Positions 2,558 through 40,620 of a stretch of 64,000 nucleotides of DNA are shown in pieces; within the stretch, counting starts at the first letter, position 1; every line of letters begins with the position of its first letter. This DNA is from an uncultured Bdellovibrionales bacterium. GTDB lineage: Bacteria > Patescibacteriota > Minisyncoccia > Moranbacterales > DUUL01. The position numbers and the translations under genes are program-made. Location: NCBI GenBank assembly GCA_964505305.1, contig CAZDHE010000001.1:95967-159966 (forward strand). The letters run 5' to 3'. Below the pieces are notes generated by a model. It was given only the letters and a program-made list of their open reading frames with translations, was not told the origin of the DNA and ran no database searches.

Positions 2558-2565
2558 AATAAGAT

Positions 2566-4749: not shown

Positions 4750-4762
4750 AAAATTTGCTTAA

Positions 4763-5911
4763 TTAGTTATCCTTAACCATCTCTTGATAAAGCTTGTGAT
4801 ATTTTTTAATGTTTTTTTCTATGTCAAAGTTTTTTCTAACAAAATTAAAACCGGCTTGAGAAATTTTTTCCCTCAATTTGCTGTTTCGCTTAAGTTTTAA
4901 AATGTTTTCAGCTAATTTTTCGGGGTTGGCCTTGGGCGTGATTAAGCCGTTTTTTTCATTTTTGATAAATTCTTGCAAAACCGGAATATCGGAAATAATT
5001 ACCGGTTTTTTGCAGGCCATAGCTTCCACTATGGCCAGGGGGATATCAAACTTTCCGGCCATCTCTCTAACCGGAAAAATATTAACATCTGACAAATTGT
5101 AAAGGTCGGCCATGTTCTCAACAGTTTCTTTGAAAAGAATTTGTTTAGAGAAGCTCTTCTGTTTAACTTGCTGAATTATTTCCTCTTTTTTCCCCTTGTC
5201 TTGAGATGATTTAATTCGGCAAGCCAAAATAAGTTTAATATCTTTGTTTTGACCGTTTTCAAAAATTATCTCCGCGGCTTTAATTATATCATCAATAGCC
5301 CTCAATCGGGTGTATTCTCCGGCAAATAGGACTACGAAATTATTTTGATTTAATTTCATTTCCTTTAAAACTTTTTTGAGTTTATTCTTTGGGAAAAACT
5401 TTTTCATATTTATTCCGGGATAAATAAGTTCTACGTTCCCAAACCCCTTCTCTTGGATTTTTTTAAGAGTGTAGTCAGATTGAGCTACTATTTTATCAGC
5501 AAAAAGAATTTTTTTTAACTTGCTTTTGTTTTGTAAATTTTTATCAGGAATAGTTGCAATGGTTTGGATCGTCTTTGAAGAGGTGAGAGTTAATCGAGAT
5601 CTTATAATAAAAGAGGTTAAGAGGCGGGGAGTGAATAAAAAGTGAATTATTTGGAAAGATTTTTTTCCCAATAAAAAATAAAGTATTAAACGAATTTTCT
5701 CATATCCGTCGAAGCGGTTTTTGGAGTAAATTTTCCTTTGGATTATTTTGTCGGGCAGCGTCTTTTCGTAGCCGGCTGAGTTTTGGGTAGTTAAAACCTC
5801 AAAGCGCAAATTTTTTTTTTGGCTATTGAAGGCTATTTCGTAAGCTAAATTTTTGGAGGCTTCGTCCCAGGGAGGGCTTAAGGGACGAGTGAAAAGTAGA
5901 ATATTTTTCAT
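4763..5911 (-). CDS. Glycosyltransferase family 4 (GT-B, RfaG-like)
   Basis: The C-terminal GT4 signature EAMACKKPVIISD is present. The length of 382 aa fits, and the gene is flanked by other GT genes. Confidence 0.75.
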   Translation of the reverse strand: MKNILLFTRPLSPPWDEASKNLAYEIAFNSQKKNLRFEVLTTQNSAGYEKTLPDKIIQRKIYSKNRFDGYEKIRLILYFLLGKKSFQIIHFLFTPRLLTSFIIRSRLTLTSSKTIQTIATIPDKNLQNKSKLKKILFADKIVAQSDYTLKKIQEKGFGNVELIYPGINMKKFFPKNKLKKVLKEMKLNQNNFVVLFAGEYTRLRAIDDIIKAAEIIFENGQNKDIKLILACRIKSSQDKGKKEEIIQQVKQKSFSKQILFKETVENMADLYNLSDVNIFPVREMAGKFDIPLAIVEAMACKKPVIISDIPVLQEFIKNEKNGLITPKANPEKLAENILKLKRNSKLREKISQAGFNFVRKNFDIEKNIKKYHKLYQEMVKDN

Positions 5912-5969
5912 TGGATTTTTTAATTTAAAGCGCCAAGATTAATTTAGGCCAGTGTTTGCTGGCAAATGA

Positions 5970-6392
5970 TTACTTGATTAAATCAATTTTCTTGCTTATG
6001 GTAGACTTTTTGTTTTCATAAGAAATTTCCACTTTGTATTTAAGTGAAGACTCTGAAAATTGAGTTATTTTTTCAATTGTTTCCGGAGATAGGCTTACAA
6101 TTTTTTCTGAGCCGGAGTTTATTTCTATCTCTCTTTCACCTATTTTTTCTTGATTAACAAAAAAAGCCGTTTTGTAATTCTGAGTTTTTTGAAAGGTGTT
6201 CTCAATAAAAAAATCAAAAACTTTTTCGTTATTTTGTTTTTTAATATAGAAGACGTTTTCTGTGTGGGAAAAAGCGGCAACAGTGTATTTTTCTCCGGCT
6301 TCTTTGCGCTGTTGCTTTTCTTGCCAAAAGAGCAGGGAGCTGCTGATTAGCAATATCCCTCCCAGCAAAAGATAAAAATAAACTTTTTTCAT
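5970..6392 (-). CDS. Small N-terminally membrane-anchored hypothetical protein
   Basis: Single N-terminal hydrophobic helix (YFYLLLGGILLISSSLLFW) followed by a polar 110-aa domain. No recognisable motifs. Confidence 0.4.
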   Translation of the reverse strand: MKKVYFYLLLGGILLISSSLLFWQEKQQRKEAGEKYTVAAFSHTENVFYIKKQNNEKVFDFFIENTFQKTQNYKTAFFVNQEKIGEREIEINSGSEKIVSLSPETIEKITQFSESSLKYKVEISYENKKSTISKKIDLIK

Positions 6393-6397
6393 AAAAA

Positions 6398-8362
6398 TTA
6401 TCTTACAAATCTTTGATAAATAACCACGTTTTCACTGGTGTAAATCATAGAGAAATTTTCCGATTTTTGGAATTGCTGCGTGTCATAACCGTTGCGGAGG
6501 ATAATATATTCAACCCCGGTTTCTTCATAGCAAGATTTTCCTATTTCCGAATCGGGAATTGAAATCATATCGCGAGTGCAGGTTTCCCTGTCTTTGACCG
6601 GGTCGTCATATCTTTTTAACAAAGCTCTGGAGAGAGGCTTCTCATAACCCCTCATTAGAAAAACTTTTACCCAAGAGTCTGCAGGTAGATGAACGTGATC
6701 TTTAAGGATAACCTCTTCGGAAGTGGTCTTTTCGGCTAAATACCTGGAGGCTCGTAAGGTTTCTGCATACATTTTGGCATTTTTTTTACTATCCTCCGGG
6801 TACCATTCGGAAATATCGGTCGAGCCGGAAATATAGCCGGTAGAAATAATTAAAGCAAAAAATAAAACAGAAGCCTTAGGGTCCAACTTTTTAATTATCG
6901 GTTTTAGCAGCAGAAAAAGACCAAACACGCATAAGGCCGCAGAGGGGTAGGTTAGATAATTGGCTATTCGACCGGAAGGGATGTCTACTTTTAAAACATC
7001 CGGAAAAGAAGTCATTAGAAAAATCACCCAAAACCAGGCCGGGATAACCAAGGCAAGTAACCCTATCTTCAGAGGGTCGCTTAATGTCACAGAATAATAT
7101 TTTTTTGCAAAATCTTTCAAAACTTGCCTTTTTGAAAAAATTAAAAACAAAATACCGCCTAAAAAGACAGTTCCTAGAAAGGAGTAAAAAACACGCCATG
7201 GTCCGGTGGATAAAAGTAAATCTCCAAAAATCACTCCCGTCCTAGTTGACTTGGATGGTTCGCCCACTGCGGTGCTTATGGCGGAGGAGTTGAGGTAAGA
7301 GGGGACTCTAATGAGAAAAACAAAAAGCAACAAGGCAATGCCAACTAACGATGATTTGAGGTTTATTATAGATTTCAGAGTTTTTGTTATTTTTTGTTTG
7401 GAAGTTTTTTTGAAAAAAAATAATAGAGCAAAATAAGCTATGGATAAGATTGTAAATCCGATAATAAAATATAAGAAAACAAAAGTGGATAGATGGTGGG
7501 TGTAAGCCATCGTTCCCACTATAAAAACACCTATGGCTGAAAGCAGAGTGTCTTTTTCTTGAATTGCTTTGGCGAATAAATAAATAGAAACGGGTATGAA
7601 AAGTCCTCCCAATATATTGCCGACCACTCCTCCATTTATGTATTTTCCCTGTGGGGAGGATATTGCGTAGAGAACTCCTATGGCAAGAAGACTTAAAAGA
7701 CCCAGGGCAAAAGAATCTCTGGGAGGCAAAAATGAGGAGGAAATTTGTTTAACCACGGCAAAAATGGCTATCAGAGAGAAAATGTTAATTAAAAACAGAA
7801 TGATATTGGGAAGAGAACTTATTAAACTTATGCCGGAAAGAATGGAAGTGGCGGCGAAAACAATGTGTTCTCCGATAATAACATCCGGAATTCCATACTG
7901 AGGAAGCTCGGCAAAGTCGACAATATGTTTGGCCCAATACATATGATGCCCTGAGTCGGTAGTGTGAGGGATAACCTTGGGAATCAAATAAATTAGTCTG
8001 GCAACTATTGAAAGAAGCAAGATGATGAAAAAAGCTAACCAGCCTTTATGTATAGATTTTCCCTCGGTTTTTTGGGGCTTGATAATTTTTCTTTTGCGAA
8101 AATGAACAAAAGCTGCTCCGGCTGTAAAAAATCCCAACCCCAGTGAAACGGAAATGAAATTAATGGCTATTCCGGCTTTGTCTACAATCATCATCAAAAA
8201 ATTGACAACGGCAATACTTAAAGTAAAAGCCAAAATAGCCTCGCCGGCGTAGCCGAACTTATTTTTCTCCGGATACAATACTTTTAAAGTAAAATACCCG
8301 GGAAGAAAGAATAAAAAAAATAAAGTAAGGCTGAGTTTAATTATATCAAGGGCAAATTCCAT
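6398..8362 (-). CDS. Polytopic membrane protein, GT-C-like (putative membrane glycosyltransferase/polymerase) with soluble C-terminal domain
   Basis: 654 aa with at least 12 hydrophobic helices in the first 480 aa, then a soluble roughly 170-aa tail. This is ArnT/PMT/O-antigen-polymerase-like topology. It lies inside the GT cluster. Confidence 0.4.
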   Translation of the reverse strand: MEFALDIIKLSLTLFFLFFLPGYFTLKVLYPEKNKFGYAGEAILAFTLSIAVVNFLMMIVDKAGIAINFISVSLGLGFFTAGAAFVHFRKRKIIKPQKTEGKSIHKGWLAFFIILLLSIVARLIYLIPKVIPHTTDSGHHMYWAKHIVDFAELPQYGIPDVIIGEHIVFAATSILSGISLISSLPNIILFLINIFSLIAIFAVVKQISSSFLPPRDSFALGLLSLLAIGVLYAISSPQGKYINGGVVGNILGGLFIPVSIYLFAKAIQEKDTLLSAIGVFIVGTMAYTHHLSTFVFLYFIIGFTILSIAYFALLFFFKKTSKQKITKTLKSIINLKSSLVGIALLLFVFLIRVPSYLNSSAISTAVGEPSKSTRTGVIFGDLLLSTGPWRVFYSFLGTVFLGGILFLIFSKRQVLKDFAKKYYSVTLSDPLKIGLLALVIPAWFWVIFLMTSFPDVLKVDIPSGRIANYLTYPSAALCVFGLFLLLKPIIKKLDPKASVLFFALIISTGYISGSTDISEWYPEDSKKNAKMYAETLRASRYLAEKTTSEEVILKDHVHLPADSWVKVFLMRGYEKPLSRALLKRYDDPVKDRETCTRDMISIPDSEIGKSCYEETGVEYIILRNGYDTQQFQKSENFSMIYTSENVVIYQRFVR

Positions 8363-8403
8363 ACTCTAATCCAATTTAAAAATAATGGCTTAAAATAAAC
8401 TAT

Positions 8404-9513
8404 CTAAGAATTCTTCATTTCATCATAGTAATTTTTAGCAATAACTTCCCAGCTATAATTGTTTTTTACGTATTCATAACTCTTTCTTCCTAAGCTTTTA
8501 AGGGAATTGGGATCGTTCTCCAGAACTTCTTTAATTTTTTCCACCCAAGCTTGAGGATTCTCCGGTTCGACTAAAAAGCCGTTTTTTCCTTCCTTGACAG
8601 CATCCTTTAAGCCTTCCAGGTCGGAAGCCAAGACAACTCTTTCGCACATTCCCGCTTCTATGGCATTGATACCAAAACCCTCCATAGAACCGATAACTTT
8701 TATGTTTGGAGAAACTACCAAGTCTACTGTATTAAGCAGTATTTTAACATCTTGCCAAGGAAGAGAGGGTAATAGCTTAACTCTATGTTCTAAGTTGTTT
8801 TCTATTATAGCTTTTTCGCTGCTCAGGAAGTCGTCTTTGTCTCCGGCTGTTCTTTCCGCTACTCGGTTTCCGGCTGCTATCATTACTACATTTTCCGGCA
8901 ACTCCGGCATAACGTTTTCTATAAACCAACTAGTCCCTTTGTGGGGTACGAATCTGGCTAATCTTAAGATAACTTTTTTTTCATTTAAAGTTTTGCCGAA
9001 TAATTGTTCCAGTTCTTTGCGGGAGTGTTTTTCCTTTAAATCTTTTTCGGATACTCCGTTGGGAATAAATTTGCAAAGGTCTGAGTCTATTCCGGCATTT
9101 AGCGCTTCTTCTATGGTAGCATTTCCCACCGCAAAAAGTTTATTCATTTTTTTTAAGGATTCAATGTTGATCTTTTGGTAAATTTTTGGCAAAACCCCTT
9201 CTTTTTGAGCGAAAGTTATGTCCAGCCCGTGAATTATGGAGAAAAATTTTTTCTTGGGATGGAAAAAGCTTAATACTCTTGCCAGCGGAGCCAATACTCC
9301 GCTTCCAACGAGGCAAGCGTCGTATTTAGTCATCAAGAAAAAAGATTTTAGAAAAGCCCAGGGAAGAAAAAGAGGCAAAAAATACTTTCCCTTTTTATTG
9401 GCAATTATTTTGGTGGAAGTAATTTCGGATAAATGACGAGCCAACTCGTAATTTTGTTTTTCAATTCCTCCAACAATAGGGGGATAAGTGTGGGAGATAA
9501 ATAGTATTTTCAT
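8404..9513 (-). CDS. Glycosyltransferase family 4
   Basis: Classic GT4 N-terminus MKILFISHTYPPIVGGIEKQNYELARHLSE and a C-terminal GT-B nucleotide-binding region. Confidence 0.8.
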   Translation of the reverse strand: MKILFISHTYPPIVGGIEKQNYELARHLSEITSTKIIANKKGKYFLPLFLPWAFLKSFFLMTKYDACLVGSGVLAPLARVLSFFHPKKKFFSIIHGLDITFAQKEGVLPKIYQKINIESLKKMNKLFAVGNATIEEALNAGIDSDLCKFIPNGVSEKDLKEKHSRKELEQLFGKTLNEKKVILRLARFVPHKGTSWFIENVMPELPENVVMIAAGNRVAERTAGDKDDFLSSEKAIIENNLEHRVKLLPSLPWQDVKILLNTVDLVVSPNIKVIGSMEGFGINAIEAGMCERVVLASDLEGLKDAVKEGKNGFLVEPENPQAWVEKIKEVLENDPNSLKSLGRKSYEYVKNNYSWEVIAKNYYDEMKNS

Positions 9514-9524
9514 AAAGATTTATT

Positions 9525-10505
9525 TTATTTAAAGTATTTCTCTTTTTTTAGATTATAACTTACTTCTTCGGATACTTTGCGATTAGAGCGGATCATATCG
9601 GCTATTAAGGCAAATACCAATAATTGAATGCCAAGCAACAGGGAAATGGAGCCGAAGAAGACATAATTAAGATAAGGGGAAATCTTAAAATTTTGTATAT
9701 AATTTAGAAAGAAAAAACCATAACTGATTAAGGCCACAAAAATAAAAAACAAGCCCGGCCAGCCAAAAAATTTTAGGGGGCGCACATCTCGAATAGCCTT
9801 TAGAATAATTTTAAAGGAGTTATTAATGAACTTCCAAATGGATTTGGTCATTTTAGACTCCCTGTCTTCAAAATAAGTTACTTTTACCGGCACCCATTGA
9901 AGTTTTAAGTTCTTCCCGATAGCGTCTATAATAGTTTCTTGGGTGTAAGTAAAAACGCTGGCTATATTTAGCCTTAACATTGTTTCTCTGTTGTGAGCTC
10001 GAAATCCGCAAGTGAGGTCATCAATTTTATGATTCAAGAAAAATCCAATAATTCCGGCGGCAAAGCGATTTAAAAAATCTTTAATCCAAGGAATATCTTT
10101 AGCTTCATGCTTGCCAAATCTATTAGCAATAGTCATATCGGTTTTTCCTTCCAAGATGGGTTGAATAAGCTTGGGTATATCTTCGGGGTCGAATTGGCCG
10201 TCTGCGTCAATGTTAACCATAATATCAGCCCTTTGCTTCAAGGCGTTTTCCAGCCCGGTTTTGAAGGTGATTCCCAATCGGCGGTTAGTTTCGTGGGAAA
10301 TAACTATGTCGGCTCCGGATTTTTTGGCTAATTCGGCTGTTTTGTCCGCAGAGCCATCATCAACCACTTGAATAAGTTTTTTTTCAAAAACTTGCCCCGA
10401 TTTTTTTTTGTAAAAATCGCTTTCAAAACTCTTTTTAATTCTTTGAATAGTTTTTCCTATAGCTTTTTCTTCATTGTAGGCAGGTATGTTTACAATCAAG
10501 ATCAT
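9525..10505 (-). CDS. GT2 family polyprenyl-phosphate glycosyltransferase (DPM1/ArnC/GtrB-like)
   Basis: GT-A fold with PAYNEE near the N-terminus and the DxD region VVDDGSADKT. Two C-terminal TM helices are typical of Dpm1/GtrB-type enzymes. Confidence 0.8.
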   Translation of the reverse strand: MILIVNIPAYNEEKAIGKTIQRIKKSFESDFYKKKSGQVFEKKLIQVVDDGSADKTAELAKKSGADIVISHETNRRLGITFKTGLENALKQRADIMVNIDADGQFDPEDIPKLIQPILEGKTDMTIANRFGKHEAKDIPWIKDFLNRFAAGIIGFFLNHKIDDLTCGFRAHNRETMLRLNIASVFTYTQETIIDAIGKNLKLQWVPVKVTYFEDRESKMTKSIWKFINNSFKIILKAIRDVRPLKFFGWPGLFFIFVALISYGFFFLNYIQNFKISPYLNYVFFGSISLLLGIQLLVFALIADMIRSNRKVSEEVSYNLKKEKYFK

Positions 10506-10529
10506 TTTTTAAAATTATTATTTATAAAA

Positions 10530-11816
10530 TTAATGCCTTCCGATGCCGTGGTAGAGAATGCCGAACTTTTTAATTTTTTCTCCGTCCAAAGAATTCATTC
10601 CGTCTACCACCACTTTAATATTTTTTCCTTTAATTTTTTCTTCAACGCCTTTAAAATCATTATGATTAGTGATTAACAACAAAGCTTGGGATTTGTCAAT
10701 TAATTCGTCCAGACTTTTAACATCAGAGTCTTGAGGTAGGTAAGGATCAAACTTAATTGATCTGGCCCCCTTTTTTTCTAATTCTTCCAATATTTTGAAC
10801 ACGGGGGACTCGCGCAAGTCGTCTATATTAGCTTTATAGGAAAGCCCCAAGATGCCTACCCCGGTATTTTTTAAAGGCATTTCGGCTTCATTTAAAAGGT
10901 CTTGTAGTAGCTTGACCGTATAAAAAGGCATATAATTGTTGATTTCTCGAGCGGCTTTTAGAAATTTATGGCTAAAACCTTTTCTCTTGGCTTGTTCGAT
11001 TAAATAATAAGGATCCACCGGGATGCAGTGCCCCCCGACTCCTCTGCCCGGATAGTGGGCCATAAAAGCAAACGGCTTAGTGGCAGCTCCATCGATAACA
11101 TCTTTAACGTCTATTTCCATTTGATCGAAGCTTTGGGCCAATTCATTTACGAAAGCTATGTTGATATCCCTAAAAGAGTTTTCCACAACTTTAACCGCTT
11201 CAGCCTCCCGAATATATTTCATCGGTTTTATTTTCCCGTCGATAATGGATTCATAAAAAGATTTGGTTTTTGATAGTCCCTTTTGAGACATTGAGCCCAC
11301 CACTCTGGAAATATTGCTTACATCCCATTTTTTGTTTCCGGGGTCTATTCTTTCCGGACAGTGGGATAAGTAATAATCCCGACCTTCTTCCAGCCCTTCT
11401 CTTTTAAAGATGGGCTCTATTACCTCTTCGCAAACTCCGGGATTGATAGTGGATTCCATAATAACCAGTCGTCCCGGCTTGTGATTTTTGATGGCGGTTC
11501 TAATCGCCCCTTTGACCGGCTTAAGGTCGGGGTAATAGTCTTTGTCTATCGGGGTGGGAACACAAATAACCAAGATGTCGGCATCTTGGATAACCTCAGA
11601 GTTGTCTGAAACTTTTAATTGTTTCAAGAATTTTTTGCGTTTTTCAATAAATTCTTCAATAAAAGGACTTTTTCCCTGCTTAATCTTTTCTATTTTTTCC
11701 GGACTTAGATCAAATCCGGATACGGAATAACCCTTTTCTGCGCAAAGAACAGCCAAGGGAAGGCCTACATATCCAAGTCCTATTATTCCCACCTTTTCTT
11801 TTTTTTGTTCAGTCAT
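10530..11816 (-). CDS. UDP-glucose/GDP-mannose dehydrogenase family (nucleotide-sugar 6-dehydrogenase, WecC/Ugd-like)
   Basis: Rossmann N-terminus KVGIIGLGYVGLPLAVLCAEKGYSVSGFD and the catalytic region GGHCIPVDPYYL are present. The length is 428 aa. Confidence 0.85.
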   Translation of the reverse strand: MTEQKKEKVGIIGLGYVGLPLAVLCAEKGYSVSGFDLSPEKIEKIKQGKSPFIEEFIEKRKKFLKQLKVSDNSEVIQDADILVICVPTPIDKDYYPDLKPVKGAIRTAIKNHKPGRLVIMESTINPGVCEEVIEPIFKREGLEEGRDYYLSHCPERIDPGNKKWDVSNISRVVGSMSQKGLSKTKSFYESIIDGKIKPMKYIREAEAVKVVENSFRDINIAFVNELAQSFDQMEIDVKDVIDGAATKPFAFMAHYPGRGVGGHCIPVDPYYLIEQAKRKGFSHKFLKAAREINNYMPFYTVKLLQDLLNEAEMPLKNTGVGILGLSYKANIDDLRESPVFKILEELEKKGARSIKFDPYLPQDSDVKSLDELIDKSQALLLITNHNDFKGVEEKIKGKNIKVVVDGMNSLDGEKIKKFGILYHGIGRH

Positions 11817-12068
11817 TTAAATTTTTAATTAGTTAAAGCGTTAATCTTATTTTGATTTACAACAATGATTTATAACAATAACACAATAAATTAATTTCTC
11901 AATGAGGCTGTTTTCAAACACCATTTCGTTACAAAATTTAGTAAAAAAGGTGGAATTGTAGCGGGAACGGCGTTTGGAAACAGCCCCTCAATAAAACTGT
12001 TTTTGAATTATTTTCCACACCGCTAATAATAATTTATCCTTGTCAGTATTAAGCGATTAAAAGTCAAA

Positions 12069-12095
12069 TAAAAAAACCATCAAAAACCTTTTGAT
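12069..12095 (-). terminator. Rho-independent terminator downstream of the 832-aa gene
   Basis: On the minus strand the sequence reads atcaaaaggtttttgat (7-bp stem) followed by ggttttttt. Confidence 0.5.
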
Positions 12096-12143
12096 TTCAT
12101 CAGGACATCTTTGTCATTAAGCAAAATAAAGCTTTTTTGAAGC

Positions 12144-14642
12144 TTAATACTTAAAAACCAATAAATTATCTTCCTTATCTACAATATAAAACTTTTTTTG
12201 GTTAAAATCAACCTGAAAATCCTTGGATTTCTTAAATTTGTCATCGGCAAAGGATTCTAAAAAGTCTCCATTGTCTGTATCGAATTTTACTATTTTGCCA
12301 TTATCCTTGTCTAAAACAAAGAAGCTTTCTGCATCTACTCCCGCTTTAACCTTGAAGGGGGTGAATTCTTCCTCGGTCAAAGATGCCTTAAACATTTCTT
12401 TGCCTTGAAAGAATTTTGAAACAAATCCATCTTCAAAGGCAATGTAGATGGAGTCGCTCACGCTTATGTCTATCGCTTTTTCTATTTTTATAGGATTATC
12501 AAGCCATTTTACAGGACTTCCGAATCCGCCCGATGAGCGAGGGTAGCGATAAATCTGCCCGTCTTCTTTGTTGGGCAAGTATAAATATGTCAAATAAGTG
12601 CCCACTCCTTTGGAGTTGTCAAATCCAAAAGGTAGAGATATTCGATTGCTAAAAAAATTACCAGTTACCGGACTATAAGAAAAAATAGCCTCTTCAGATA
12701 CAACGAAGACAAGTTGCAGGGAAGGGATAGCGGCCAAGTAGCGAGGATTTTCAGCTTCCTCCGGCAGGGATATCTTAGTCTGGTTGTTTTCCGAGGGATT
12801 GAATTGAATGAGTTGGTCGTTCTCTGTCAAAAAAAATAAAATTCCTTCCATTTGAGTGGAGTTTTTAATTTTTTCTTTAAAGCTGGCAATCTGAGAAAGA
12901 TTATCCAATTGCTCTCCTACGTCCTTGACGGGTGTTTGCTTCTCGGAAGGGTTGTCGGCTTGGTTATGGGAGGGGTTTGATTTAGGGAAAAAATTTACTG
13001 CCAAGGCGGATACAACGCCCGCTAAAATAACAAACGAGACAGTAATAATAATTTTCTTTTTTCTTGTGTTAAGGCTTTGGTTCAATTTAGCCCAAAAAGA
13101 AGTGTTTTTAAATTTACTCCATAATGTTGAAAAATAACTTAACATTTTTTTTGGGTTAGCTTTTTTAAACTTACTGTTTATTATTGTTTTTAATTTTTCG
13201 AGGGAAACACTCTTTTTGGCTAATTTTTTTTCTGAATCTTTATTAAAAAAAGCAGCTATTTTATCCTTTTTGGCAGAAGCAGCCTTTTCACTTTTAGTTA
13301 CGGAAAAGCTTTTCTCCTTCTTTTCTTCTTGCTTTTCTTCATCCCTTTTGTCCTCGCCCTTTCCATTTCTTATTTTTTCGAAAAAATTTTGTAAAGCGTT
13401 TTTTGCTTGAGAATAAAGCCGGCAAAAGAGAGCTTGAATTTTTTTAAGCAAAAGAGTTGTTTTTTCGGTTAGGGATTTAAAGAAATTTTTAAGGCTAATT
13501 TCTTGAAAAAAAGATGATGCGCTTTTGCAAAGGGAGTCTTTTTTTTCTGTAATTTTATCCTTAATATCCCTAAATAAATCAGGCTTTAAGCGTTCTTCTT
13601 TTTCTTGCAACTCTTTTTCCAGGTCTTCCGGAAAGTCTTTTTCTTTAAGGTGAATTTCAGGCTCCTTTTCAAAGGGAGGTATGTCTTGATCGTATTCTTC
13701 TTGAGGGACTTCTTCTTTTTGTGTGCTTGGTTCTTCACCGGCCTCATCTTTCTTTTCTTTTATTAGACTTTCCATGTCTTCCTGCTCCACTAAGGTTTCC
13801 TGAAAATTATCTTGTTGATGAATTTCTTCTTTTTTCATATTTACCTGAGAGGATTTTTCTTTTTCGGTTTTTCCGAAAAAGTTTACATCTTTTTCTGATT
13901 TGGAGGTCTTTTCCGGAGAGTAATCTTTTTCTTCGGTTGGAAGCTTTTTTTCTTTAATATTGACGACAACTCCTCCCGTTTGATCTCCATCTGATTGAAG
14001 AGTAGAGCTTAGTATGTTGTCAAATTCATCTGAAGTGAAGGTTTTGGAGTGTCTTTCCATTTCCTCTTGAGAGAGAAACTCCAGGGCGTTTTCCGGGATA
14101 AGAATGATTTTGTCTCCGGGAAACAGTTTTCCTGAGGAGATACTGGAAAAGGTTTTAATGGGATGGGTGATGGAGTTTTGGTTTTCGTTGGGAGTAATAT
14201 CGGATAATTTTTTATCTCTCAAAAGAAGAACTTTTGCCCTGCCAACTTGGACAAAATGAAATTCTTCATTTTTAATTACTCCGATTGCGGCATTAAACCC
14301 GCCCATCCATTCGATTATTTCATGCTGAGCTAAGTCTGTTAGGGCTAAGTTGGCCTTGTGAAGAGCTTTTTCAAAACTTTCTCCGGTTTCTTGTTTGGGC
14401 GCTTTGAAAAATTCTCTTTTAATAACCTGGGTTAAGAGATTGGGAATGTATTCGGAATTTTTGCTGTGGTTTTCCACTTGGATGACACCAAAAACTTGCC
14501 CCAGTTTATTCTGGGCTACATTTTTACCTTCTAACTTGAATACATTTAAAAACGGCCTATGATCGGGATTTTTTACTGCGGTGACTTCGAAAGAATCCGC
14601 TTCGAGCAAGCTTTGCCCTTTCTCTTGGTTGGCTTTTTTCAT
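12144..14642 (-). CDS. Multidomain membrane protein: degenerate PP2C-like N-terminal domain, K/E-rich low-complexity linker, one TM helix and a beta-rich C-terminal domain
   Basis: The N-terminal 230 aa align to PP2C phosphatase motifs (FNAAIGVIKNEEFHFVQVGRAKVLLLRDKKLSDIT; LFPGDKIILIPENALEFL). The metal-binding Asp positions are replaced (GDSR to GRAK, SDGL to IPEN). The TM helix is IIITVSFVILAGVVSALAVNFF. The C-terminal 270 aa carries repeated aromatic/Gly/Asp beta-strand motifs. Confidence 0.55.
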   Translation of the reverse strand: MKKANQEKGQSLLEADSFEVTAVKNPDHRPFLNVFKLEGKNVAQNKLGQVFGVIQVENHSKNSEYIPNLLTQVIKREFFKAPKQETGESFEKALHKANLALTDLAQHEIIEWMGGFNAAIGVIKNEEFHFVQVGRAKVLLLRDKKLSDITPNENQNSITHPIKTFSSISSGKLFPGDKIILIPENALEFLSQEEMERHSKTFTSDEFDNILSSTLQSDGDQTGGVVVNIKEKKLPTEEKDYSPEKTSKSEKDVNFFGKTEKEKSSQVNMKKEEIHQQDNFQETLVEQEDMESLIKEKKDEAGEEPSTQKEEVPQEEYDQDIPPFEKEPEIHLKEKDFPEDLEKELQEKEERLKPDLFRDIKDKITEKKDSLCKSASSFFQEISLKNFFKSLTEKTTLLLKKIQALFCRLYSQAKNALQNFFEKIRNGKGEDKRDEEKQEEKKEKSFSVTKSEKAASAKKDKIAAFFNKDSEKKLAKKSVSLEKLKTIINSKFKKANPKKMLSYFSTLWSKFKNTSFWAKLNQSLNTRKKKIIITVSFVILAGVVSALAVNFFPKSNPSHNQADNPSEKQTPVKDVGEQLDNLSQIASFKEKIKNSTQMEGILFFLTENDQLIQFNPSENNQTKISLPEEAENPRYLAAIPSLQLVFVVSEEAIFSYSPVTGNFFSNRISLPFGFDNSKGVGTYLTYLYLPNKEDGQIYRYPRSSGGFGSPVKWLDNPIKIEKAIDISVSDSIYIAFEDGFVSKFFQGKEMFKASLTEEEFTPFKVKAGVDAESFFVLDKDNGKIVKFDTDNGDFLESFADDKFKKSKDFQVDFNQKKFYIVDKEDNLLVFKY

Positions 14643-14785: not shown

Positions 14786-15409
14786 CTATAAAAGAGAGGA
14801 TTGAGTAGATCTTTTTTCTTTTGGCGGCTCCTGTTTTTTATCCTTCTTGATTATCTCCAAGACTTTTGGTATTTTGCCAAAATCTTGCGCCAAAGTGCTT
14901 TTGAGATTGCCGTTATATAAAGCTGCCGCGGGGTGATAGCAAGGAAAAAATACCATTTTACCAAAGGGCGGAAATTCCTTGCGCAAAGCGCGCCCGTGGT
15001 GCCGGGTGATACTTGCCTTAGGTAGAAATCTTTGCAAACTGTGGCGCCCCAGCAAAACTATTAATTCCGGTTGAATTATAGAAATTTGTTTTTCCAGCCA
15101 TGGCCAGCAGGTTCTAACTTCGGCCGGCAGAGGATCCCGGTTTCCCGGCGGACGGCATTTAACTACGTTGGTAATATAAACATCTCCTCTTTTTAGGTTA
15201 TTTTGTTGCAGCATTTCATCCAAAAGCCTCCCGGCGGCTCCCACAAATGGTCGGCCTTGTAAATCCTCATTTTTGCCCGGCCCTTCTCCGATAAACATAA
15301 TTTCTGCCTTCGGGCTGCCTTCTCCGGGAACTGCGTAAGTTCTGCCAGCGGACAATTGACAGGATTGGCAAGATTTTATTTCTTTTTCTAATTCTTGCAG
15401 GGAAGTCAT
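14786..15409 (-). CDS. Uracil-DNA glycosylase, family 4
   Basis: The family signature [50 protein letters not shown] matches throughout. Confidence 0.85.
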
Positions 15410-15411
15410 TT

Positions 15412-15723
15412 TTAATCAATTTTATATTTAGAATTTCTTTTATCGGAAACCTTATTGAACTTTTCCTTTACTAAGTCCGATAGGGAATAACCCAGCCTGG
15501 TGCAGAGCAAGTCCGCATAGCCGACTACGTCGGCCACTTCCTCGGCAATATCTTTTTTGTCTATTTCTTCGCCTCGGCGGAGCTTTTTTATCTTGTTGCA
15601 GGCTTCGCCGCACTCGCCGGCCATAGCATTGCCCCAGTCCGAATAAGACCAGTCTTCCAGGTTGTGAAAAACCTCATTGCAACGCTTGGCGTTGAGTTCG
15701 GAAAATTTTTCGAAGTCAAACAT
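15412..15723 (-). CDS. MazG-like nucleotide pyrophosphohydrolase (all-alpha NTP-PPase)
   Basis: 103 aa with EE/ExxD acidic metal-binding pairs (AGECGEACNKI...EEVADVVGYADLL) typical of small MazG/HisE-like NTP-PPases. The 4-bp start/stop overlap with the UDG gene suggests translational coupling. Confidence 0.6.
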   Translation of the reverse strand: MFDFEKFSELNAKRCNEVFHNLEDWSYSDWGNAMAGECGEACNKIKKLRRGEEIDKKDIAEEVADVVGYADLLCTRLGYSLSDLVKEKFNKVSDKRNSKYKID

Positions 15724-15797
15724 TAAAGTTTCTTAAAAATTATCAAAGATTATTTGCATTTTCATCAAGATGGAAAAAGTTGCTTTTTTGAATTAAA

Positions 15798-15886
15798 GTC
15801 AAATCTCAAATCTCAAAAGTCAAAACCACAACTAAAAACTTAAAGTCGAACAGTTTTTAGTTTTAGCCTGTGTTTTGAGATTTGAG
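15798..15886. terminator. Long imperfect stem-loop (roughly 90 nt) between the nfo and MazG-like genes; candidate terminator or structured RNA
   Basis: ctcaaatctcaaaa (15805-15818) pairs with ttttgagatttgag (15873-15886) and caactaaaaact (15829-15840) with agtttttagttt (15852-15863), around the loop taaagtcgaac. It includes a tandem tcaaatc x2. Confidence 0.35.
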
Positions 15887-15921
15887 TTCACTTTATACTT
15901 TAAGGAAAATTGAGGGTTAAT

Positions 15922-16770
15922 TTACTTAAGAAATTCCAGAGTGGTCTTAATATCCTTTTTTATCTTATCATGCTTGGTCTCCAAATACAAATTGATGCCC
16001 AGTTCCTTAGCTTTTCTTGCTACAGCTTTTAATCCGATTTCGCCGATTTCGCCTTGCCCGATGTGTTCATGGCGATCTATGTGAGAATCTAAAGTGCTCT
16101 TGGAATCGTTAAAATGAATACAGTTTAGCTTTTTTAGTCCTATTTCTCGGTCTATTTCTTGGAAAGTTTCTTGAACCGCCTCCGGCGTTCTCAGGTCTTT
16201 TCCGGCCGCAAAAGCATGGCAAGTGTCAAAACAAAAACCAAGCTCTATTTTCGACTTGCCGGCTTCTTTTAAAAAATAAGAAAATTCCTCCAAATTATCT
16301 CCTATGATGCTTCCGCTTCCGGCGGCAATTTCAAGGCTTAAAACAGCTCTCCCTCGGTAGTCTTGTAGAACTTCCTTCAAGCCTTTAATAACCCTTTTTT
16401 TAATAGCTGGCCAATTTTCGTTTTTGTCCAGATCTTTTGAACTCCCCAAGTGAGTGATTACATAAGGACATTTTATTTGATTGGCTATTTCCAATTCTTC
16501 TTTTAAGACGCGGATAGAGCTTTTGTAAATTTTTTCTTCCCGGCTGGCTAAATTGATATAGTAGGGAGTGTGAATTATATAATCTTTGCCGATATTGAAA
16601 TTGTATTTTTTGCACTCATTAAAAAATTTTTGTTCGTCAATTTCTTTTCTTTTGCCTCCCCGGGGAGAACGGGTGAAAATTTGAAAACATTCGCATCCAA
16701 GAATTTGGGCGTTTCCGGGTGCATTTTCCACTCCGCCGGCAATGGAGACATGGGCACCAACTTTAGTCAT
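15922..16770 (-). CDS. nfo: Endonuclease IV (AP endonuclease family 2)
   Basis: N-terminus MTKVGAHVSIAGG with a conserved His/Asp/Glu metal-site pattern (ITHLGS, CFDTCHAFAAG, LHLND-like). The length is 282 aa. Confidence 0.9.
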   Translation of the reverse strand: MTKVGAHVSIAGGVENAPGNAQILGCECFQIFTRSPRGGKRKEIDEQKFFNECKKYNFNIGKDYIIHTPYYINLASREEKIYKSSIRVLKEELEIANQIKCPYVITHLGSSKDLDKNENWPAIKKRVIKGLKEVLQDYRGRAVLSLEIAAGSGSIIGDNLEEFSYFLKEAGKSKIELGFCFDTCHAFAAGKDLRTPEAVQETFQEIDREIGLKKLNCIHFNDSKSTLDSHIDRHEHIGQGEIGEIGLKAVARKAKELGINLYLETKHDKIKKDIKTTLEFLK

Positions 16771-17218
16771 AATCGGTAAAGGTTAGATTTCGTTATTATA
16801 TCAAAATTATACAATCAAAATAAAAACGCAGCAAGCAAAAAGGCGGTCAAATCAAAGTTTAATTGTTCTTTATTGCAATTTCGTTTTGTTAAACTTGTTA
16901 TTTAGTCTAAAAAATCTCTCTATCTGGAACTATTGGGAAAGATTGAAGCGTAGTTCTTTTTCAGCGGGATTCTTTAATTAGGTTGAACAAGATGAGAAAC
17001 ATTTTAGACATAGGTTTGATTTATGTTATTATTTATGCTATTCTAATTTGAGATTTATTGGGCGGATTCGAAGAAATTTTTCTGAAATCAACAATTTAAA
17101 ACAGCGCCAAGTCCTATTTTAAAGGCTTTTTTCAAATTAATTTTCTATGCCGAGACTTGGTTTTGAAAATAATTCAAAAAAAGAAAATCTCTAAATCTTA
17201 ATTTTTTGTCTTTTAAAG

Positions 17219-20086
17219 ATGGAGCAAGAAAAAATAATTATAAAAGGGGCCGAAGAAAATAATTTAAAAAACGTAAACTTGGAATTGCCCAAAAACAAAA
17301 TTATTGCCATTACAGGTTTATCGGGAAGCGGGAAGAGTTCTTTTGCTTTTGATACCCTGTATTTTGAAGGTTATCGCAGGTATGTGGAAAATCTATCCGG
17401 CAGCGCCAGATTTTTTATGCATTCAGTCAAGAAACCCAAAGTTAAAGAAATCCAAAATTTGTGCCCTACCATTTCAATTAGCCAAAGAAACAACAATCAA
17501 AATCCTCGCTCTACAGTGGGAACTTTAACCGGAATTTATGATTTTTTAAGAGCTCTCTATTTTAGATTTGGAACTTTTTATTGCCCTCATTGCGGCAAAG
17601 AACTCAAGAAAAATACTACGCAGGAGATTTTGGATAAAATTAGTCAACATTCTCAAGGCACCGAGGTGTTAATAGCCTCTCCTGTTACTATTGAGGGTAA
17701 AGGCATTACAGAGGTTTTGAAATCTATTGAAAATGCCGGTTATTCCAAAATAATTCCTGTCTATAAGGATAAGGATAAAAAGACAACGCTCTTGGAACTT
17801 GCTCAAGCAGAGAACTCTCTTGGGGAGAGCGAGCTTAGAGAGCTTTATATTTTAGTAGATAAATTGTATTTGGATAAATCCAGATTAGATAAAGAAAGAA
17901 TTATTGATTCTTTAAAATCAGCCGAAAAATTATCGGAAATTTCTCTCACGCCAAAAAGCCACGTTCGGACTAGTTTATCTGCATCAAAAGATCATGCCGG
18001 AGCAGGAAAAATGGCTTTTATATTTTTTGACCGAAAAGAGAGAGCTTCTTTTAGCCGGTGTTATGTTTGCTCTGGGTGCGGTTATCAAAGAAGAGATTTT
18101 GTCTTCCGGGATTTTTCTTTTAATTCTCCCGAGGGAGCATGTTCTTTGTGCAAAGGAATCGGAGAAGTTGCCAGATTAAACGTGGATAAAGTTATTCCCA
18201 ATCAGAAACTCTCCTTTAAAGAGGGCGCTGTTGAGCCTTGGGTTCGTTTGGGAGGAAGATCGGGCTTCAATAAATTTTCGAAAGGTAAACTGCAAGAGCT
18301 GGCCAATTTCTTGGGTTTTAGCTTAGATGATCCGATTGAAAAATTGACTAAAGAGCAATTCGAGGCTTTCATTTATGGATTTCGAGATGATTCTCGAGGA
18401 ATCTTTTTTGAGGGGGTGGAAAAAGATTTAAACGATCGATATGAAAAGGCGGACTTAACTTCATCTAAAAGGGAATTGGAAAAATATTTTTCTTTTAAAA
18501 TCTGTCCCGATTGCGGAGGGGGTAGACTTAAGCCCGAAGTTTTGAATGCCGAGGTTTGGGGAAAGAAATTTAAAGAAATGACTGAAATGGAAATCGGGAA
18601 TTTATTAGCTTTTTTAAGAGAAAAAACAGGCAGTAATAAAAAAAATAAGCTAAAGGAAAATCAGGCTAAAATTATTGAGGAAATAAATAAAAGACTGGAT
18701 CCCTTGGTGAATGCGGGTGTTGGGTATTTAAGCTTGAACAGGGGTTGCAATAGTCTTTCCGGGGGAGAACTTCAAAGAACCAGGATTGCTTCCCAGCTTT
18801 ATAGCGGTTTAAATGGAGTTTTGTATGTTTTGGATGAACCCACCATCGGACTTCATAGTAGAGACACTCAAAAATTGATAAAAACTTTTCAAAAATTAAA
18901 AAATAACAAAAGTTCTTTGGTGGTGGTAGAGCATGATAAAGAAATAATCGAAAGCGCCGATGAAATTATAGATTTTGGGCCCGGTGCCGGAGAGCAAGGG
19001 GGAGAAGTAATTTTTCAAGGCAATTTCGGGGAACTCAAGAAAGCGGACACTCCAACGGCGGATTTTTTTAACAATAAAATATCTTTTCAATCCAAGAACA
19101 GAAAACCCAAAAAACATCTCGAAATCCAAGGGGCGAGACATAATAACTTGAAAAACATTGATTTGAAGATCCCTCTGGGTTGTTTAGTTTCTTTTGCCGG
19201 AGTATCCGGAAGCGGTAAAAGTTCTTTAGTGGTGGATGTTTTGGCTAAGGCTTTGAGACAAGAGATTCATCAAACAGGAGAAGAGCCGGGAAGTTTTAAT
19301 GAAATCAAAGGTTTGGAAAACATTCAAAAAGCGGTTGCGGTCGATCAATTGTCCATCGGAAGATCTCCACGGTCTAATCCGGCAACCTATACCGGCATTT
19401 TTAGCCATATTCGAGAGTTGTTTGCCCAAACGGAGGCGGCTGAGAAAAAGGGTTTTAATGCCGGCTATTTTTCCTTTAATTTAAAAGGAGGCAGGTGCGA
19501 GCATTGCCAGGGTGAAGGAACAGTTTCCGCGGAGATGCCGCTTTTGGAGGATGTTAGATCTTTGTGTCCTTACTGTAAAGGGACTCGATACAATAAAAAA
19601 ATTCTTGAAATTGAATATCATGGAGTTAATATTGCGAAAGTTTTAGATATGAGTGTTGATTATGCTTATAGGTTTTTTCACTTGAATAAGCTTGTCCAGA
19701 AAAAGTTGAAGGTTTTGAAAGATGTCGGTTTGGGTTATCTTAAATTGGGGCAAAGCGCTAATCGCCTTTCCGGCGGAGAGGCTCAGAGAATAAAGTTGGC
19801 CACCGAATTAATCAGGAAATCAAGAGGAAACTGTTTATACATCCTCGACGAGCCGACCATAGGACTTCATTTTCAAGACATTAAAAAACTTTTAAAAGTT
19901 TTAAATGAATTGGTCGATCAAGGAAATTCAGTTTTTGTCATTGAACACAATACAGAGATGCTCAAGGCTAGCGATTGGATTATAGAAATGGGTCCCGGAG
20001 GAGGTGAAAAAGGAGGGGAGGTTATTTTCGAAGGAACGCCGAAAGAGCTTTCCGCAACAAACACCGAAACAGGCAGGGTTTTGTGA
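17219..20086 (+). CDS. uvrA: Excinuclease ABC subunit A
   Basis: 955 aa with two ABC ATPase modules (GLSGSGKSS; GVSGSGKSS), LSGGE signatures and Zn-finger CxxC pairs. Its full length is conserved. Confidence 0.95.
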   Translation: MEQEKIIIKGAEENNLKNVNLELPKNKIIAITGLSGSGKSSFAFDTLYFEGYRRYVENLSGSARFFMHSVKKPKVKEIQNLCPTISISQRNNNQNPRSTVGTLTGIYDFLRALYFRFGTFYCPHCGKELKKNTTQEILDKISQHSQGTEVLIASPVTIEGKGITEVLKSIENAGYSKIIPVYKDKDKKTTLLELAQAENSLGESELRELYILVDKLYLDKSRLDKERIIDSLKSAEKLSEISLTPKSHVRTSLSASKDHAGAGKMAFIFFDRKERASFSRCYVCSGCGYQRRDFVFRDFSFNSPEGACSLCKGIGEVARLNVDKVIPNQKLSFKEGAVEPWVRLGGRSGFNKFSKGKLQELANFLGFSLDDPIEKLTKEQFEAFIYGFRDDSRGIFFEGVEKDLNDRYEKADLTSSKRELEKYFSFKICPDCGGGRLKPEVLNAEVWGKKFKEMTEMEIGNLLAFLREKTGSNKKNKLKENQAKIIEEINKRLDPLVNAGVGYLSLNRGCNSLSGGELQRTRIASQLYSGLNGVLYVLDEPTIGLHSRDTQKLIKTFQKLKNNKSSLVVVEHDKEIIESADEIIDFGPGAGEQGGEVIFQGNFGELKKADTPTADFFNNKISFQSKNRKPKKHLEIQGARHNNLKNIDLKIPLGCLVSFAGVSGSGKSSLVVDVLAKALRQEIHQTGEEPGSFNEIKGLENIQKAVAVDQLSIGRSPRSNPATYTGIFSHIRELFAQTEAAEKKGFNAGYFSFNLKGGRCEHCQGEGTVSAEMPLLEDVRSLCPYCKGTRYNKKILEIEYHGVNIAKVLDMSVDYAYRFFHLNKLVQKKLKVLKDVGLGYLKLGQSANRLSGGEAQRIKLATELIRKSRGNCLYILDEPTIGLHFQDIKKLLKVLNELVDQGNSVFVIEHNTEMLKASDWIIEMGPGGGEKGGEVIFEGTPKELSATNTETGRVL

Positions 20087-20159
20087 GCTTGCGGAAGAAA
20101 TGAAAAATTTTAGTTTTCGCGAGCTTAATAGCTTAAAAAGTTTAAAATAATTTTAGAAA

Positions 20160-21083
20160 ATGAAAGACGAAATCATTAAAGAGGTTTATTTTACTATAAT
20201 TTATTTCAATGTTCTTAAGCGGCCGCCTTCCACTTTTGAAGTTTGGCGCTTTTTTATGGATTTTTCCAAAAGAAAAACCGCATGTTCTTACGAGGAGGCG
20301 GTAAAAGTTTTGGAGAAACTTCAAGAACAGCGAAAAATTTTAAACAAAAACGGATTTTGGGTTTTACCGGAAAAGCAAGATTTATCCAAAGAAAGGATTT
20401 TGCGTCAAAAAATTTCTGTTTCAAAGATAAAAAGGGCGGCTTTCTGGATTAAATTAATGAATTTAATTCCTTATTGCAAAGGAGTTTTTTCTTCCGGAGC
20501 TTTGACTTTGGGCAATTGTGGGAAAAACAGTGATTGGGATATTTTAGTGGTAATTAAGAAAAATAGAATTTGGATTGGCAGGTTTTTCGTGACTGTTTTT
20601 TTGGCTTTTTTGGGCAAAAGAAGGAGCTCTAAAAAGATTGCGGATAGATTCTGCTTGAATCATTTTATAACAGAGAATAACCTTGTTTTTGCCGATAGAA
20701 GTGAATTTGCCGCTTTGGACAAAAGTTTTATGACTTCTTTTCTTGGAAAAGAGTATTTTCATAAAATGCAACAATTAAATTTTGCCTGGTCAAGACTTTC
20801 AATGCCCAACTTTTCTCAAGATGCTTTCGGGTATGATTATTTTAATTGCAGAAACACCTTCTTAATACTAATCAGAGAACAATTAGAAAGGATATTGGAA
20901 TTCTTGAGGCTTGGAGGATTATTGAATAATTTTTGCAGAAAAGTAATGATAAAGAAGATTGAAAAAAATCCCGAAACCCACAGAGAGGGAGCTTTTATAG
21001 TTTACAATGAGGGGGAGCTGGCTTTTTGGCCCAAGCCCAAAAAAAATGAATTATTGCTTAAGATACAAAACCAATTTTTTTAA
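20160..21083 (+). CDS. Pol-beta superfamily nucleotidyltransferase-domain protein (function unknown)
   Basis: The minimal NTase signature G[GS]-x11-D-x-D is present in SSGALTLGNCGKNSDWDILVV. There are no other recognisable domains. Confidence 0.45.
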   Translation: MKDEIIKEVYFTIIYFNVLKRPPSTFEVWRFFMDFSKRKTACSYEEAVKVLEKLQEQRKILNKNGFWVLPEKQDLSKERILRQKISVSKIKRAAFWIKLMNLIPYCKGVFSSGALTLGNCGKNSDWDILVVIKKNRIWIGRFFVTVFLAFLGKRRSSKKIADRFCLNHFITENNLVFADRSEFAALDKSFMTSFLGKEYFHKMQQLNFAWSRLSMPNFSQDAFGYDYFNCRNTFLILIREQLERILEFLRLGGLLNNFCRKVMIKKIEKNPETHREGAFIVYNEGELAFWPKPKKNELLLKIQNQFF

Positions 21084-21607: not shown

Positions 21608-21679
21608 GCCCCATCGTCTAGTGGTTAGGACGCCAGGTTCTCATCCTGGTAACAGGGGTTCGACTCCCCTTGGGGTCAC
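21608..21679 (+). tRNA. tRNA-Glu (anticodon CTC)
   Basis: A 72-nt cloverleaf was folded by hand. The acceptor is GGCCCCA/TGGGGTC (one G-U pair). The D-stem is GTCT/GGAC. The anticodon stem is CCAGG/CCTGG with loop TTCTCAT. The T-arm is AGGGG-TTCGACT-CCCCT and the discriminator is A. CCA is not encoded. Confidence 0.85.
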
Positions 21680-40600: not shown

Positions 40601-40620
40601 TAAGAAGATTGTAAGTGTTT

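Follow-up and report, generated by a model that had tools for sequence, protein, structure and literature searches.

What becomes of a phosphatase fold in a bacterial membrane protein once the residues that should hold its metals have been replaced? The question is raised by an 832-residue protein encoded in a 64,000-nucleotide stretch of DNA (contig CAZDHE010000001.1, positions 95,967 to 159,966; hereafter, the window) from an uncultured member of the Patescibacteria. The original prediction pictured a degenerate PP2C-like domain in the cytoplasm, a long charged linker, one transmembrane helix, and a propeller outside the cell. Fold searches, residue registers, and a survey of 176 relatives support that picture overall. 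The target is a bitopic (N-in, C-out) membrane protein of a large unannotated family. We favor, with a probability of about 0.6, the reading that it is a transmembrane sensor or scaffold without catalytic activity, perhaps connected with the assembly of envelope glycans.

Architecture of the protein

The gene and its recognizable parts are as follows.

12144..14642, minus strand: complete coding sequence of 832 codons for amino acids, ATG start, stop codon at 12144..12146 (from the listing of open reading frames, ORFs)
13947..14642, minus strand: residues 1-232, cytoplasmic domain of predicted PPM/PP2C fold with a degenerate metal site (N58, R135, E184; D220 possibly kept), from an AlphaFold2 model, Foldseek, hhalign, and column counts
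13053..13946, minus strand: residues 233-530, K/E-rich cytoplasmic linker of variable length, 42% K/E/D/R in the target
13872..13883, minus strand: residues 254-257, short NFFG motif just past the PP2C-like domain, from a family motif scan
13644..13679, minus strand: residues 322-333, subclade linker motif PPFEKEPEIHLK (SPFE..PEIYIK), a conserved block in 35 of 153 relatives
12987..13052, minus strand: residues 531-552, single transmembrane helix after R527-K-K-K530, N-in and C-out, from hydropathy and flanking charge
12147..12929, minus strand: residues 572-832, extracytoplasmic six-bladed NHL-type beta-propeller, from an AlphaFold2 model, Foldseek, and a profile match

That the predicted reading frame is a genuine gene follows from three sources: the ORF listing; a 100% identical protein (P0001) already deposited as a hypothetical protein from a Patescibacteria metagenome-assembled genome (MAG); and the homologue alignment, which starts at the same Met1. 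Annotation by sequence gave little. The full protein has no Pfam match at E<=10, including PP2C, PP2C_2, SpoIIE, and NHL; its best NCBIfam match, to the Stp1/IreP PP2C model (Stp1_PP2C_phos), reaches 15.5 bits where the cutoff is 230; and phmmer found no match among PDB sequences. A word-indexed homologue search returned 41 relatives of 630-1350 amino acids, all hypothetical proteins from Patescibacteria/Moranbacteria, and none of the 41 carries a precomputed Pfam domain. Their alignment contains two conserved blocks, residues 1-232 and approximately 572-832, on either side of an unalignable middle. No paralogue of either the amino-terminal or the propeller domain was found within the window.

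By structural modeling, residues 1-232 adopt the PPM/PP2C fold. The AlphaFold2 model, built from an alignment of 25 sequences, has a mean predicted local distance difference test score (pLDDT) of 89.6 and a predicted template-modeling score (pTM) of 0.86. Foldseek matched this model to 157 PDB entries at E<=0.001, and the best 50 of these 157 are all PPM/PP2C-fold structures, with E values from 4e-11 to 2e-7 and template-modeling (TM) scores of 0.55-0.71 over the whole domain. Matches include PppA, PstP, tPphA, S. agalactiae STP, SpoIIE, the RsbU domain of Rv1364c, RsbX, and P. aeruginosa RssB, together with PPM1K and plant ABI/HAB; sequence identity to the PP2Cs among them is 11-16%. The structure search proposed with the original prediction therefore returned the fold that had been predicted. 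Profile comparison with hhalign aligned residues 87-197 to PstP plus tPphA (probability 90%, E 1.4e-6). A family profile run with HMMER against PDB sequences reached PPM1H and TAB1 at sub-significant values (E about 1), and these alignments were used solely to check register.

Might this likeness be an artefact of prediction and alignment, with an unrelated alpha/beta sandwich as the true fold? Sequence searches taken by themselves would leave room for that, considering the empty Pfam result, the PDB profile value near 1, and the low identity. We consider it very improbable, however: the structural matches extend across the entire domain, with TM scores up to 0.71; the hhalign result contains three motifs in register (G-x-x-x, HP, and GD..(S)DGL); HMMER independently places PPM1H and TAB1 in that same register; and even the faint NCBIfam match is to Stp1.

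Beyond this domain lies the linker, which the original prediction described as 300 residues of K/E-rich low-complexity sequence. The charge stands, but the segment is not featureless: it contains NFFG, SPFE..PEIYIK, and amphipathic stretches at 385-425 and 497-514. Across the family the linker spans 122-810 residues (median 274), has a median charged fraction of 33%, and can hardly be aligned outside its short motifs. At least 90% of the sequences in the homologue alignment have N254, and N[FYLAV][FLV][GS] is matched at positions 235-300 in 143 of 153 full-length relatives. Such a composition is consistent with a flexible tether.

For the membrane helix, hydropathy (Kyte-Doolittle) peaks at 2.74 at residue 531, and exactly one transmembrane helix is predicted in 142 of the 153 full-length relatives, with a median of 300 residues from the start of the helix to the carboxyl terminus. 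Lysine plus arginine in the 15 flanking residues averages 4.1 on the amino-terminal side and 2.4 on the carboxyl-terminal side. Because there is a single helix with a positive-inside flank, and because the amino terminus of the target is hydrophilic and has no signal peptide, the topology is assigned as N-in, C-out. This agrees with the predicted single helix and cytoplasmic PP2C-like domain, and we are highly confident of the domain architecture and membrane topology as described.

For the propeller, the AlphaFold2 model of residues 572-832 is all-beta with 23 strands (pLDDT 94, pTM 0.91). Foldseek returned propellers throughout, the top TM scores being those of Brat (0.77), NHL-2 (0.77), and Pizza6 (0.75-0.78). 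The family profile found the extracellular NHL sensor of receptor kinase PknD as its best match among PDB sequences (E 0.007), followed more weakly by the NHL domains of Brat, Thin, and SOQ1 (E about 0.2). Model and structure search together identify the propeller-like domain of the original prediction as a six-bladed NHL type, with PknD the nearest in sequence. Conservation within it is highest in a loop at residues 696-713, QIYRYPR..GGFG...W, which 140 of 153 relatives share.

A degenerate metal site across the family

Active PP2Cs hold their metals through conserved aspartates, and the original prediction was that all of these are substituted in the target. Testing the claim depends on register. 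For the central and carboxyl-terminal parts of the domain, hhalign pairs G134-R135 with PstP G117-D118 (GDSR); H160-P161 with H156-P157; K163-T164 with R159-S160; G176-D177-K178 with G183-D184-R185; and P183-E184-N185 with S190-D191-G192 (SDGL). The independent HMMER alignment to PPM1H and TAB1 gives the same register at the GDSR and SDGL positions. The two predicted replacements, GDSR by GRAK (G134-R135-A-K) and SDGL by (I)PEN (P183-E184-N185-A186), are thus borne out, and neither alignment contains a shift that would restore the aspartates.

The DGMGGH motif is placed differently, through secondary structure in the model and not through a confident alignment: a strand ends at V56 and helix alpha1 begins at I66, so that V56-x57-D58 corresponds to PstP L36-A37-D38. 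In this register the target carries N58 in place of the aspartate, as predicted in substance. The global hhalign register for the amino-terminal third, which would equate PstP D38 with F51, puts the residue in mid-strand at near-zero confidence and was rejected for position 58. A fourth ligand, PstP D229 of the DN motif, had been overlooked; with low confidence, D220-Q221 stands opposite PstP D229-N230 in the global alignment, and this one metal-ligand aspartate may be kept in the target. The claim of complete substitution therefore holds for N58, R135, and E184, and perhaps not for position 220.

Catalytic columns were then counted in 176 family members.

Position 58 (PstP D38, DGxGG): D in 138, E in 31, and N in 5 of 176, the target being among those with Asn
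Position 135 (PstP D118, GDSR): Asp in 19 of 176 (11%)
Position 184 (PstP D191, SDGL): E in 51 (29%), P in 49 (28%), and D in 30 (17%) of 176; acidic in 46%
Position 220 (PstP D229, DN): E in 81 and D in 52 of 176; acidic in 76%
Columns 24-33 (R..NED motif; motif I, R-x-x-N/M-E-D): no conserved Arg or acid, with alignment confidence near zero in this part

Only four of the 176 have an acidic residue at each of the four ligand positions, and in only two is every one of these an aspartate; a catalytically intact subclade was sought among them and none was found. The survey of orthologues that had been suggested thus makes the degenerate metal site a trait of the family.

Where, then, does conservation lie? 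Information content is highest in alpha1 (3.36 bits), the flap HPxKTF (3.21), beta8 (3.16), and alpha2 (3.15), against a domain mean of 2.51, whereas positions of the catalytic motifs fall below that mean (SDGL, 2.04; DN, 1.81). Nine residues are invariant (G48, Y65, N68, N98, W112, P161, T164, F165, and G171), and K75, K76, K96, K163, and D177 nearly so. Conservation at the ligand positions is lost family-wide and is concentrated instead on alpha1/alpha2 and the flap. This element-by-element pattern is opposite to that of active PP2Cs, and is the pattern of a pseudoenzyme. At the same time, the domain is the best-conserved part of the protein, with a mean column identity of 54% compared with 42% for the propeller, from which we infer purifying selection despite the degenerate site.

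The domain has the fold of the PP2Cs and the sequence features of a pseudophosphatase, and lacks the conserved metal-ligand aspartates of the catalytic family. Judged from these sequences, it would be a pseudophosphatase maintained by selection for a non-catalytic function, and the family protein is probably not a conventional phosphatase. The exceptional conservation of alpha1 and alpha2 suggests that they form an output interface. A catalytically degenerate PP2C-like module, as originally proposed, is what the survey supports, with loss of activity deduced from the residues.

The family is large. A profile of the amino-terminal domain, searched exhaustively against 1.84 billion cluster representatives (clustered at 50% identity), matched 2,598 clusters at E<=1e-3; of these, 1,825 reach E<=1e-10 and 521 reach E<=1e-30. 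Among the best 150 of the 2,598 matches the domain lies at or near the amino terminus, and most proteins have 700-980 residues; shorter ones are perhaps fragments. Members that can be identified come from Patescibacteria/Moranbacteria, and neither Pfam nor NCBIfam has a model for the family. Several MAG records with a family gene (L008, L011, L017-L019, L022, L031, and L039) are titled "uncultured Bdellovibrionales bacterium"; these bins are probably mislabeled.

A profile search with the propeller domain for other architectures, such as kinase fusions, found none, returning fragments, gene calls without the amino-terminal domain, and one distant relative. The latter (P0189, 21% identity) keeps the order of PP2C-like domain, transmembrane helix, and propeller, with SHGF in place of SDGL. 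Three calls (P0177, P0178, and P0181) comprise linker, transmembrane helix, and propeller without the PP2C-like domain, one of them on a 331-kb contig. At the other extreme, relative P0013 has 1347 residues. Such calls, short and long, could be split genes, alternative gene calls, or true architectural variants.

Precedents and genomic setting

The original prediction did not recognize this architecture, but its layout has a precedent. M. tuberculosis PstP consists of a cytoplasmic PP2C, a transmembrane helix, and an extracellular domain (bioRxiv 10.1101/2022.02.28.482390). PstP (Rv0018c) and the target share the order of parts: an amino-terminal cytoplasmic PP2C fold; a juxtamembrane linker; one transmembrane helix; and an extracellular carboxyl-terminal domain. 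The PstP structures 1txo and 2cm1 are among the top matches of the target (E about 1e-10), and both proteins have the HP motif of the flap and the glycine of GDSR. The two differ in activity, since PstP is an active enzyme that keeps all its catalytic aspartates, whereas those of the target family are substituted or unconserved. They also differ in company: PstP is co-transcribed with its kinase PknB (PMC6213207), whereas no Hanks kinase motif was found in the window or in approximately 500 neighboring ORFs of relatives. Finally, the target has an NHL propeller as ectodomain, a far longer and highly charged linker, and only about 14% identity to PstP.

The ectodomain has its own counterpart in PknD (Rv0931c), the best sequence-profile match of the target propeller. 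PknD likewise has a six-bladed propeller with four-stranded blades, located outside the membrane after a single transmembrane helix, on a protein with a signaling-type cytoplasmic domain (PMC6213207). In the target, however, the propeller is joined to a PP2C-like module and not to a Hanks kinase. Compared with the NHL propellers of PknD, Brat, NHL-2, and Pizza6, that of the target has no Pfam NHL match, its blades are divergent and not highly symmetric, and it contains the family-specific conserved loop YPR..GGFG..W.

Pseudophosphatases of the PPM fold are also known. Human TAB1 is one, and binds proteins. E. coli RssB is a PP2C-fold pseudophosphatase whose switch helices are still functional (PMC6546054), and PHLPP2 is a PPM-fold pseudophosphatase (PMC12002173). 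The PP2C fold of RssB, TAB1, and PHLPP2 has lost some of its catalytic aspartates, as has that of the target, and serves to bind proteins, as that of the target may. In SpoIIE, RsbU, and RssB, dimerization and regulatory contacts run through the alpha1/alpha2 switch helices (PMC6546054); these elements, functionally important in RssB, are the most conserved ones in the target family. Both TAB1 and P. aeruginosa RssB appear among the sequence or structure matches of the target. Nevertheless, RssB, TAB1, and PHLPP2 are soluble cytoplasmic proteins, with a receiver domain, kinase-docking segments, and PH plus LRR domains, respectively; none is receptor-like and transmembrane, and none has detectable specific sequence kinship to the target beyond the shared fold.

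SpoIIE and RsbU share the fold too (5mqh, 5ucg, and 3ke6), SpoIIE is also anchored in the membrane, and regulation through alpha1/alpha2 is a plausible analogue. They differ from the target in being active enzymes with intact metal ligands; SpoIIE has ten amino-terminal transmembrane helices and no ectodomain; and the STAS partner-switching substrates of these enzymes were not seen near the target gene. In the literature we found no description of a degenerate PP2C on a receptor-like transmembrane protein with an NHL propeller, and a full-text search for Patescibacteria together with PP2C gave nothing relevant. The elements are individually familiar (PstP layout, PknD ectodomain, RssB/TAB1/PHLPP2 pseudophosphatases); their combination appears to be new.

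Does the setting of the gene point to a process? The window has a GC content of about 36%, and its ORFs of at least 220 amino acids from 1085 to 16770 are all on the minus strand. The neighboring features that matter here are these.

1085..11816, minus strand: surface-glycan cluster, co-directional, with the target gene at its head (ORF annotation)
14786..20086: DNA-repair cluster immediately upstream of the target, with UDG-family glycosylase, MazG-like pyrophosphohydrolase, and endonuclease IV (all minus strand) plus UvrA, which is divergent and plus-strand
21788..22879, plus strand: polyprenyl synthetase, near the glycan cluster

Downstream of the target the cluster encodes a UDP-glucose/GDP-mannose dehydrogenase, glycosyltransferases of families GT2 and GT1, a DUF1616/DUF6541 polytopic membrane protein, a second GT1, RtcB, and a Wzx/MurJ-type flippase. 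On the far side of the DNA-repair genes' minus-strand members, the strand switches at approximately 16770..17219: ORFs of at least 220 amino acids at 17219..60354 are on the plus strand, with the exception of an overlapping ORF on the minus strand (50518..51378). At about 10-16 kb the cumulative GC skew is flat or at its lowest, and it rises steadily thereafter. Strand switch and skew may together mark a replication-origin-type inflection.

The neighborhood was surveyed in 45 non-redundant loci of relatives, a set found with a 6-sequence alignment and biased toward Moranbacteria. In 16 of the 45, from three subclades, the family gene is preceded on its own strand by a DedA/VTT gene, at a distance of 16-63 bp in about 10. 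By raw count, with no genome-wide baseline, 28 of the 45 have at least one polyprenyl-phosphate/glycan gene within 7 kb (DedA, MraY/WecA-type GT4, UppS, polyprenyl synthase, PMT_2, GT2, or UDP-glucose dehydrogenase). Since DedA proteins are undecaprenyl-phosphate flippases (PMC9876793, PMC10127716), this context points weakly to polyprenyl-phosphate-dependent envelope glycan assembly. A strictly conserved operon was considered and rejected, as the neighborhood varies among loci and leaves only a loose linkage to DedA and glycan genes. An envelope-glycan link for the family is accordingly a tentative proposal, one that we rate at well under even odds.

Other neighbors recur. A gene for a VirD4/TraG-like coupling ATPase (TrwB_AAD_bind, TraG-D_C) is found in L003 and L016-L046, for example at 9956..12481 on the minus strand of L021, and PilM/N/O genes lie near the family gene in 7 of the 45 loci. 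Loci with either are all in subclades distant from that of the target, which lacks the VirD4-like gene. A motif search for the kinase signature HRDxKxxN, FHA, and canonical PP2C found none of them in the 64-kb window or in the approximately 500 neighboring ORFs of 47 loci. At the locus of one close relative (P0010; L001, 507..7093), the family gene adjoins a 7TM_transglut gene and a run of ATP-grasp (RimK/GSH-S-like) genes, five or six in number.

The original prediction also gave the gene its own Rho-independent terminator, which was not supported.

12079..12145, minus strand: two weak AT-rich hairpins, each followed by a T-run, at 12145..12129 and 12095..12079 (sequence reading)

A terminator scan of the minus strand downstream of the target stop codon reported no site, and the hairpins, at -4.5 and -3.0 kcal/mol (z -0.56 and +0.22), fold no better than shuffled sequences. 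In so AT-rich a genome they may nonetheless serve as a terminator. The 327 bp that separate the target from the UDP-sugar dehydrogenase gene also contain an extended hairpin of 84 nt (11904..11987, minus strand), which folds at -34.4 kcal/mol (z = -5.85), a value equaled by 0 of 200 shuffles. It belongs to no Rfam family, and the window contains no second copy of its arm; across the downstream intergenic region, Rfam gave only a sub-threshold match to a snoRNA, at the level of chance. The hairpin could be a strong terminator, an attenuator, or another RNA element.

Sensor or scaffold, enzyme, or adhesin?

If the target is a non-catalytic sensor or scaffold, its propeller would bind a ligand outside the cytoplasm, the likeliest being a glycan of the cell envelope or a lipid-linked intermediate, and the PP2C-like module with the NFFG linker motif would bind partner proteins and fix their position, in the manner of RssB and TAB1. 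The process served would be polyprenyl-phosphate-dependent envelope glycan assembly, which the neighborhood weakly indicates. A more explicit proposal makes the protein a receptor-type transmembrane pseudophosphatase, which would be a bacterial class not known to have been described before, and in which binding of ligand by the propeller would be relayed to the dead PP2C domain, whose switch helices and flap would in turn bind or release a partner, for example an enzyme or flippase of polyprenyl-phosphate-linked glycan synthesis. So specific a mechanism is conceivable, although we would sooner doubt it than adopt it.

Several observations weigh against a non-catalytic sensor or scaffold, and they come from both the metal site and the neighborhood. 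Relatives have D/E at position 58 in 96% of cases and an acidic residue at position 220 in 76%; the register of the amino-terminal third depends on predicted secondary structure, hhalign confidence there being near zero; T164 aligns with S160, the third-metal ligand of PstP; and the target itself keeps E57, E184, and D220 near the site. A single-metal site, or residual or altered activity, may therefore be conceivable in this domain. The same residues could be assembled into an active, atypical membrane PP2C analogous to PstP, with a rearranged or single-metal site made from D/E58, E184, D/E220, T164, and neighboring acids, that would dephosphorylate cytoplasmic phosphoproteins under control of the ectodomain. 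Its overall layout would be that of active PstP, and the alignment of H160-P161 with PstP H156-P157 extends the resemblance to the flap. We nevertheless think such an enzyme unlikely. The equivalents of D118 and D191 are unconserved, the latter being proline in 28% of relatives; motif I, in a stretch where alignment confidence is near zero, has no conserved Arg/Asp; aspartate at all four positions is confined to 2 of 176; and the target has asparagine at the one position otherwise conserved. Conservation in the columns of the catalytic motifs falls below the domain average, whereas active PP2Cs show the reverse, and the window and neighboring ORFs have neither a Hanks kinase nor an FHA gene nor a canonical PP2C.

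On the side of the neighborhood, the link to envelope glycans is circumstantial because gene order is not strictly conserved; the synteny seen in related Moranbacteria may reflect common descent and not function; and the commonest neighbor is in fact the convergent VirD4/TraG-like ATPase, which 23 of 45 loci have downstream of the family gene. This neighbor and the nearby PilM/N/O genes would suit a protein of the cell surface, in which the propeller does the work (for example, host-cell or polymer binding by episymbionts) and the PP2C-like domain is a mere anchor or oligomerizer with no part in signaling. Such a protein may cooperate with the products of the neighboring type IV pilus or VirD4-like genes. 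The strongly conserved propeller loop QIYRYPR..GGFG..W fits such an adhesin, as do the three gene calls limited to linker, transmembrane helix, and propeller. Yet no part of the protein is better conserved than the cytoplasmic domain, a fact hard to square with a passive anchor; the VirD4-like gene, which is convergent, is not co-transcribed with the family gene and is missing from the subclade of the target; and the short forms may be split or mis-called genes. This explanation, too, has only a small share of the probability, and the sensor or scaffold remains the reading that we prefer.

A large part of bacterial diversity belongs to the Patescibacteria (the Candidate Phyla Radiation, CPR), whose genomes are very small and almost none of whose members have been cultured. 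Large, conserved proteins that occur throughout such a lineage and still lack annotation are prime candidates for roles in the cell biology peculiar to it. The present family, of approximately 2,600 clusters, can now be annotated as having a degenerate PP2C-like domain, a transmembrane helix, and an NHL propeller. To our knowledge, PPM-fold pseudophosphatases have so far come mainly from eukaryotes and from the soluble adaptor RssB; if the pseudophosphatase reading is true, the pseudoenzyme concept would reach a bacterial transmembrane receptor. If the protein is active instead, it would be a PP2C with an unconventional metal site. In either case, alpha1/alpha2, HPxKTF, NFFG, and the propeller loop provide handles for studying how the envelope is sensed and organized. 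Should the receptor-type mechanism prove true, these genome-reduced bacteria would control envelope assembly through transmembrane signaling that is free of enzymes, with no kinase beside the gene.

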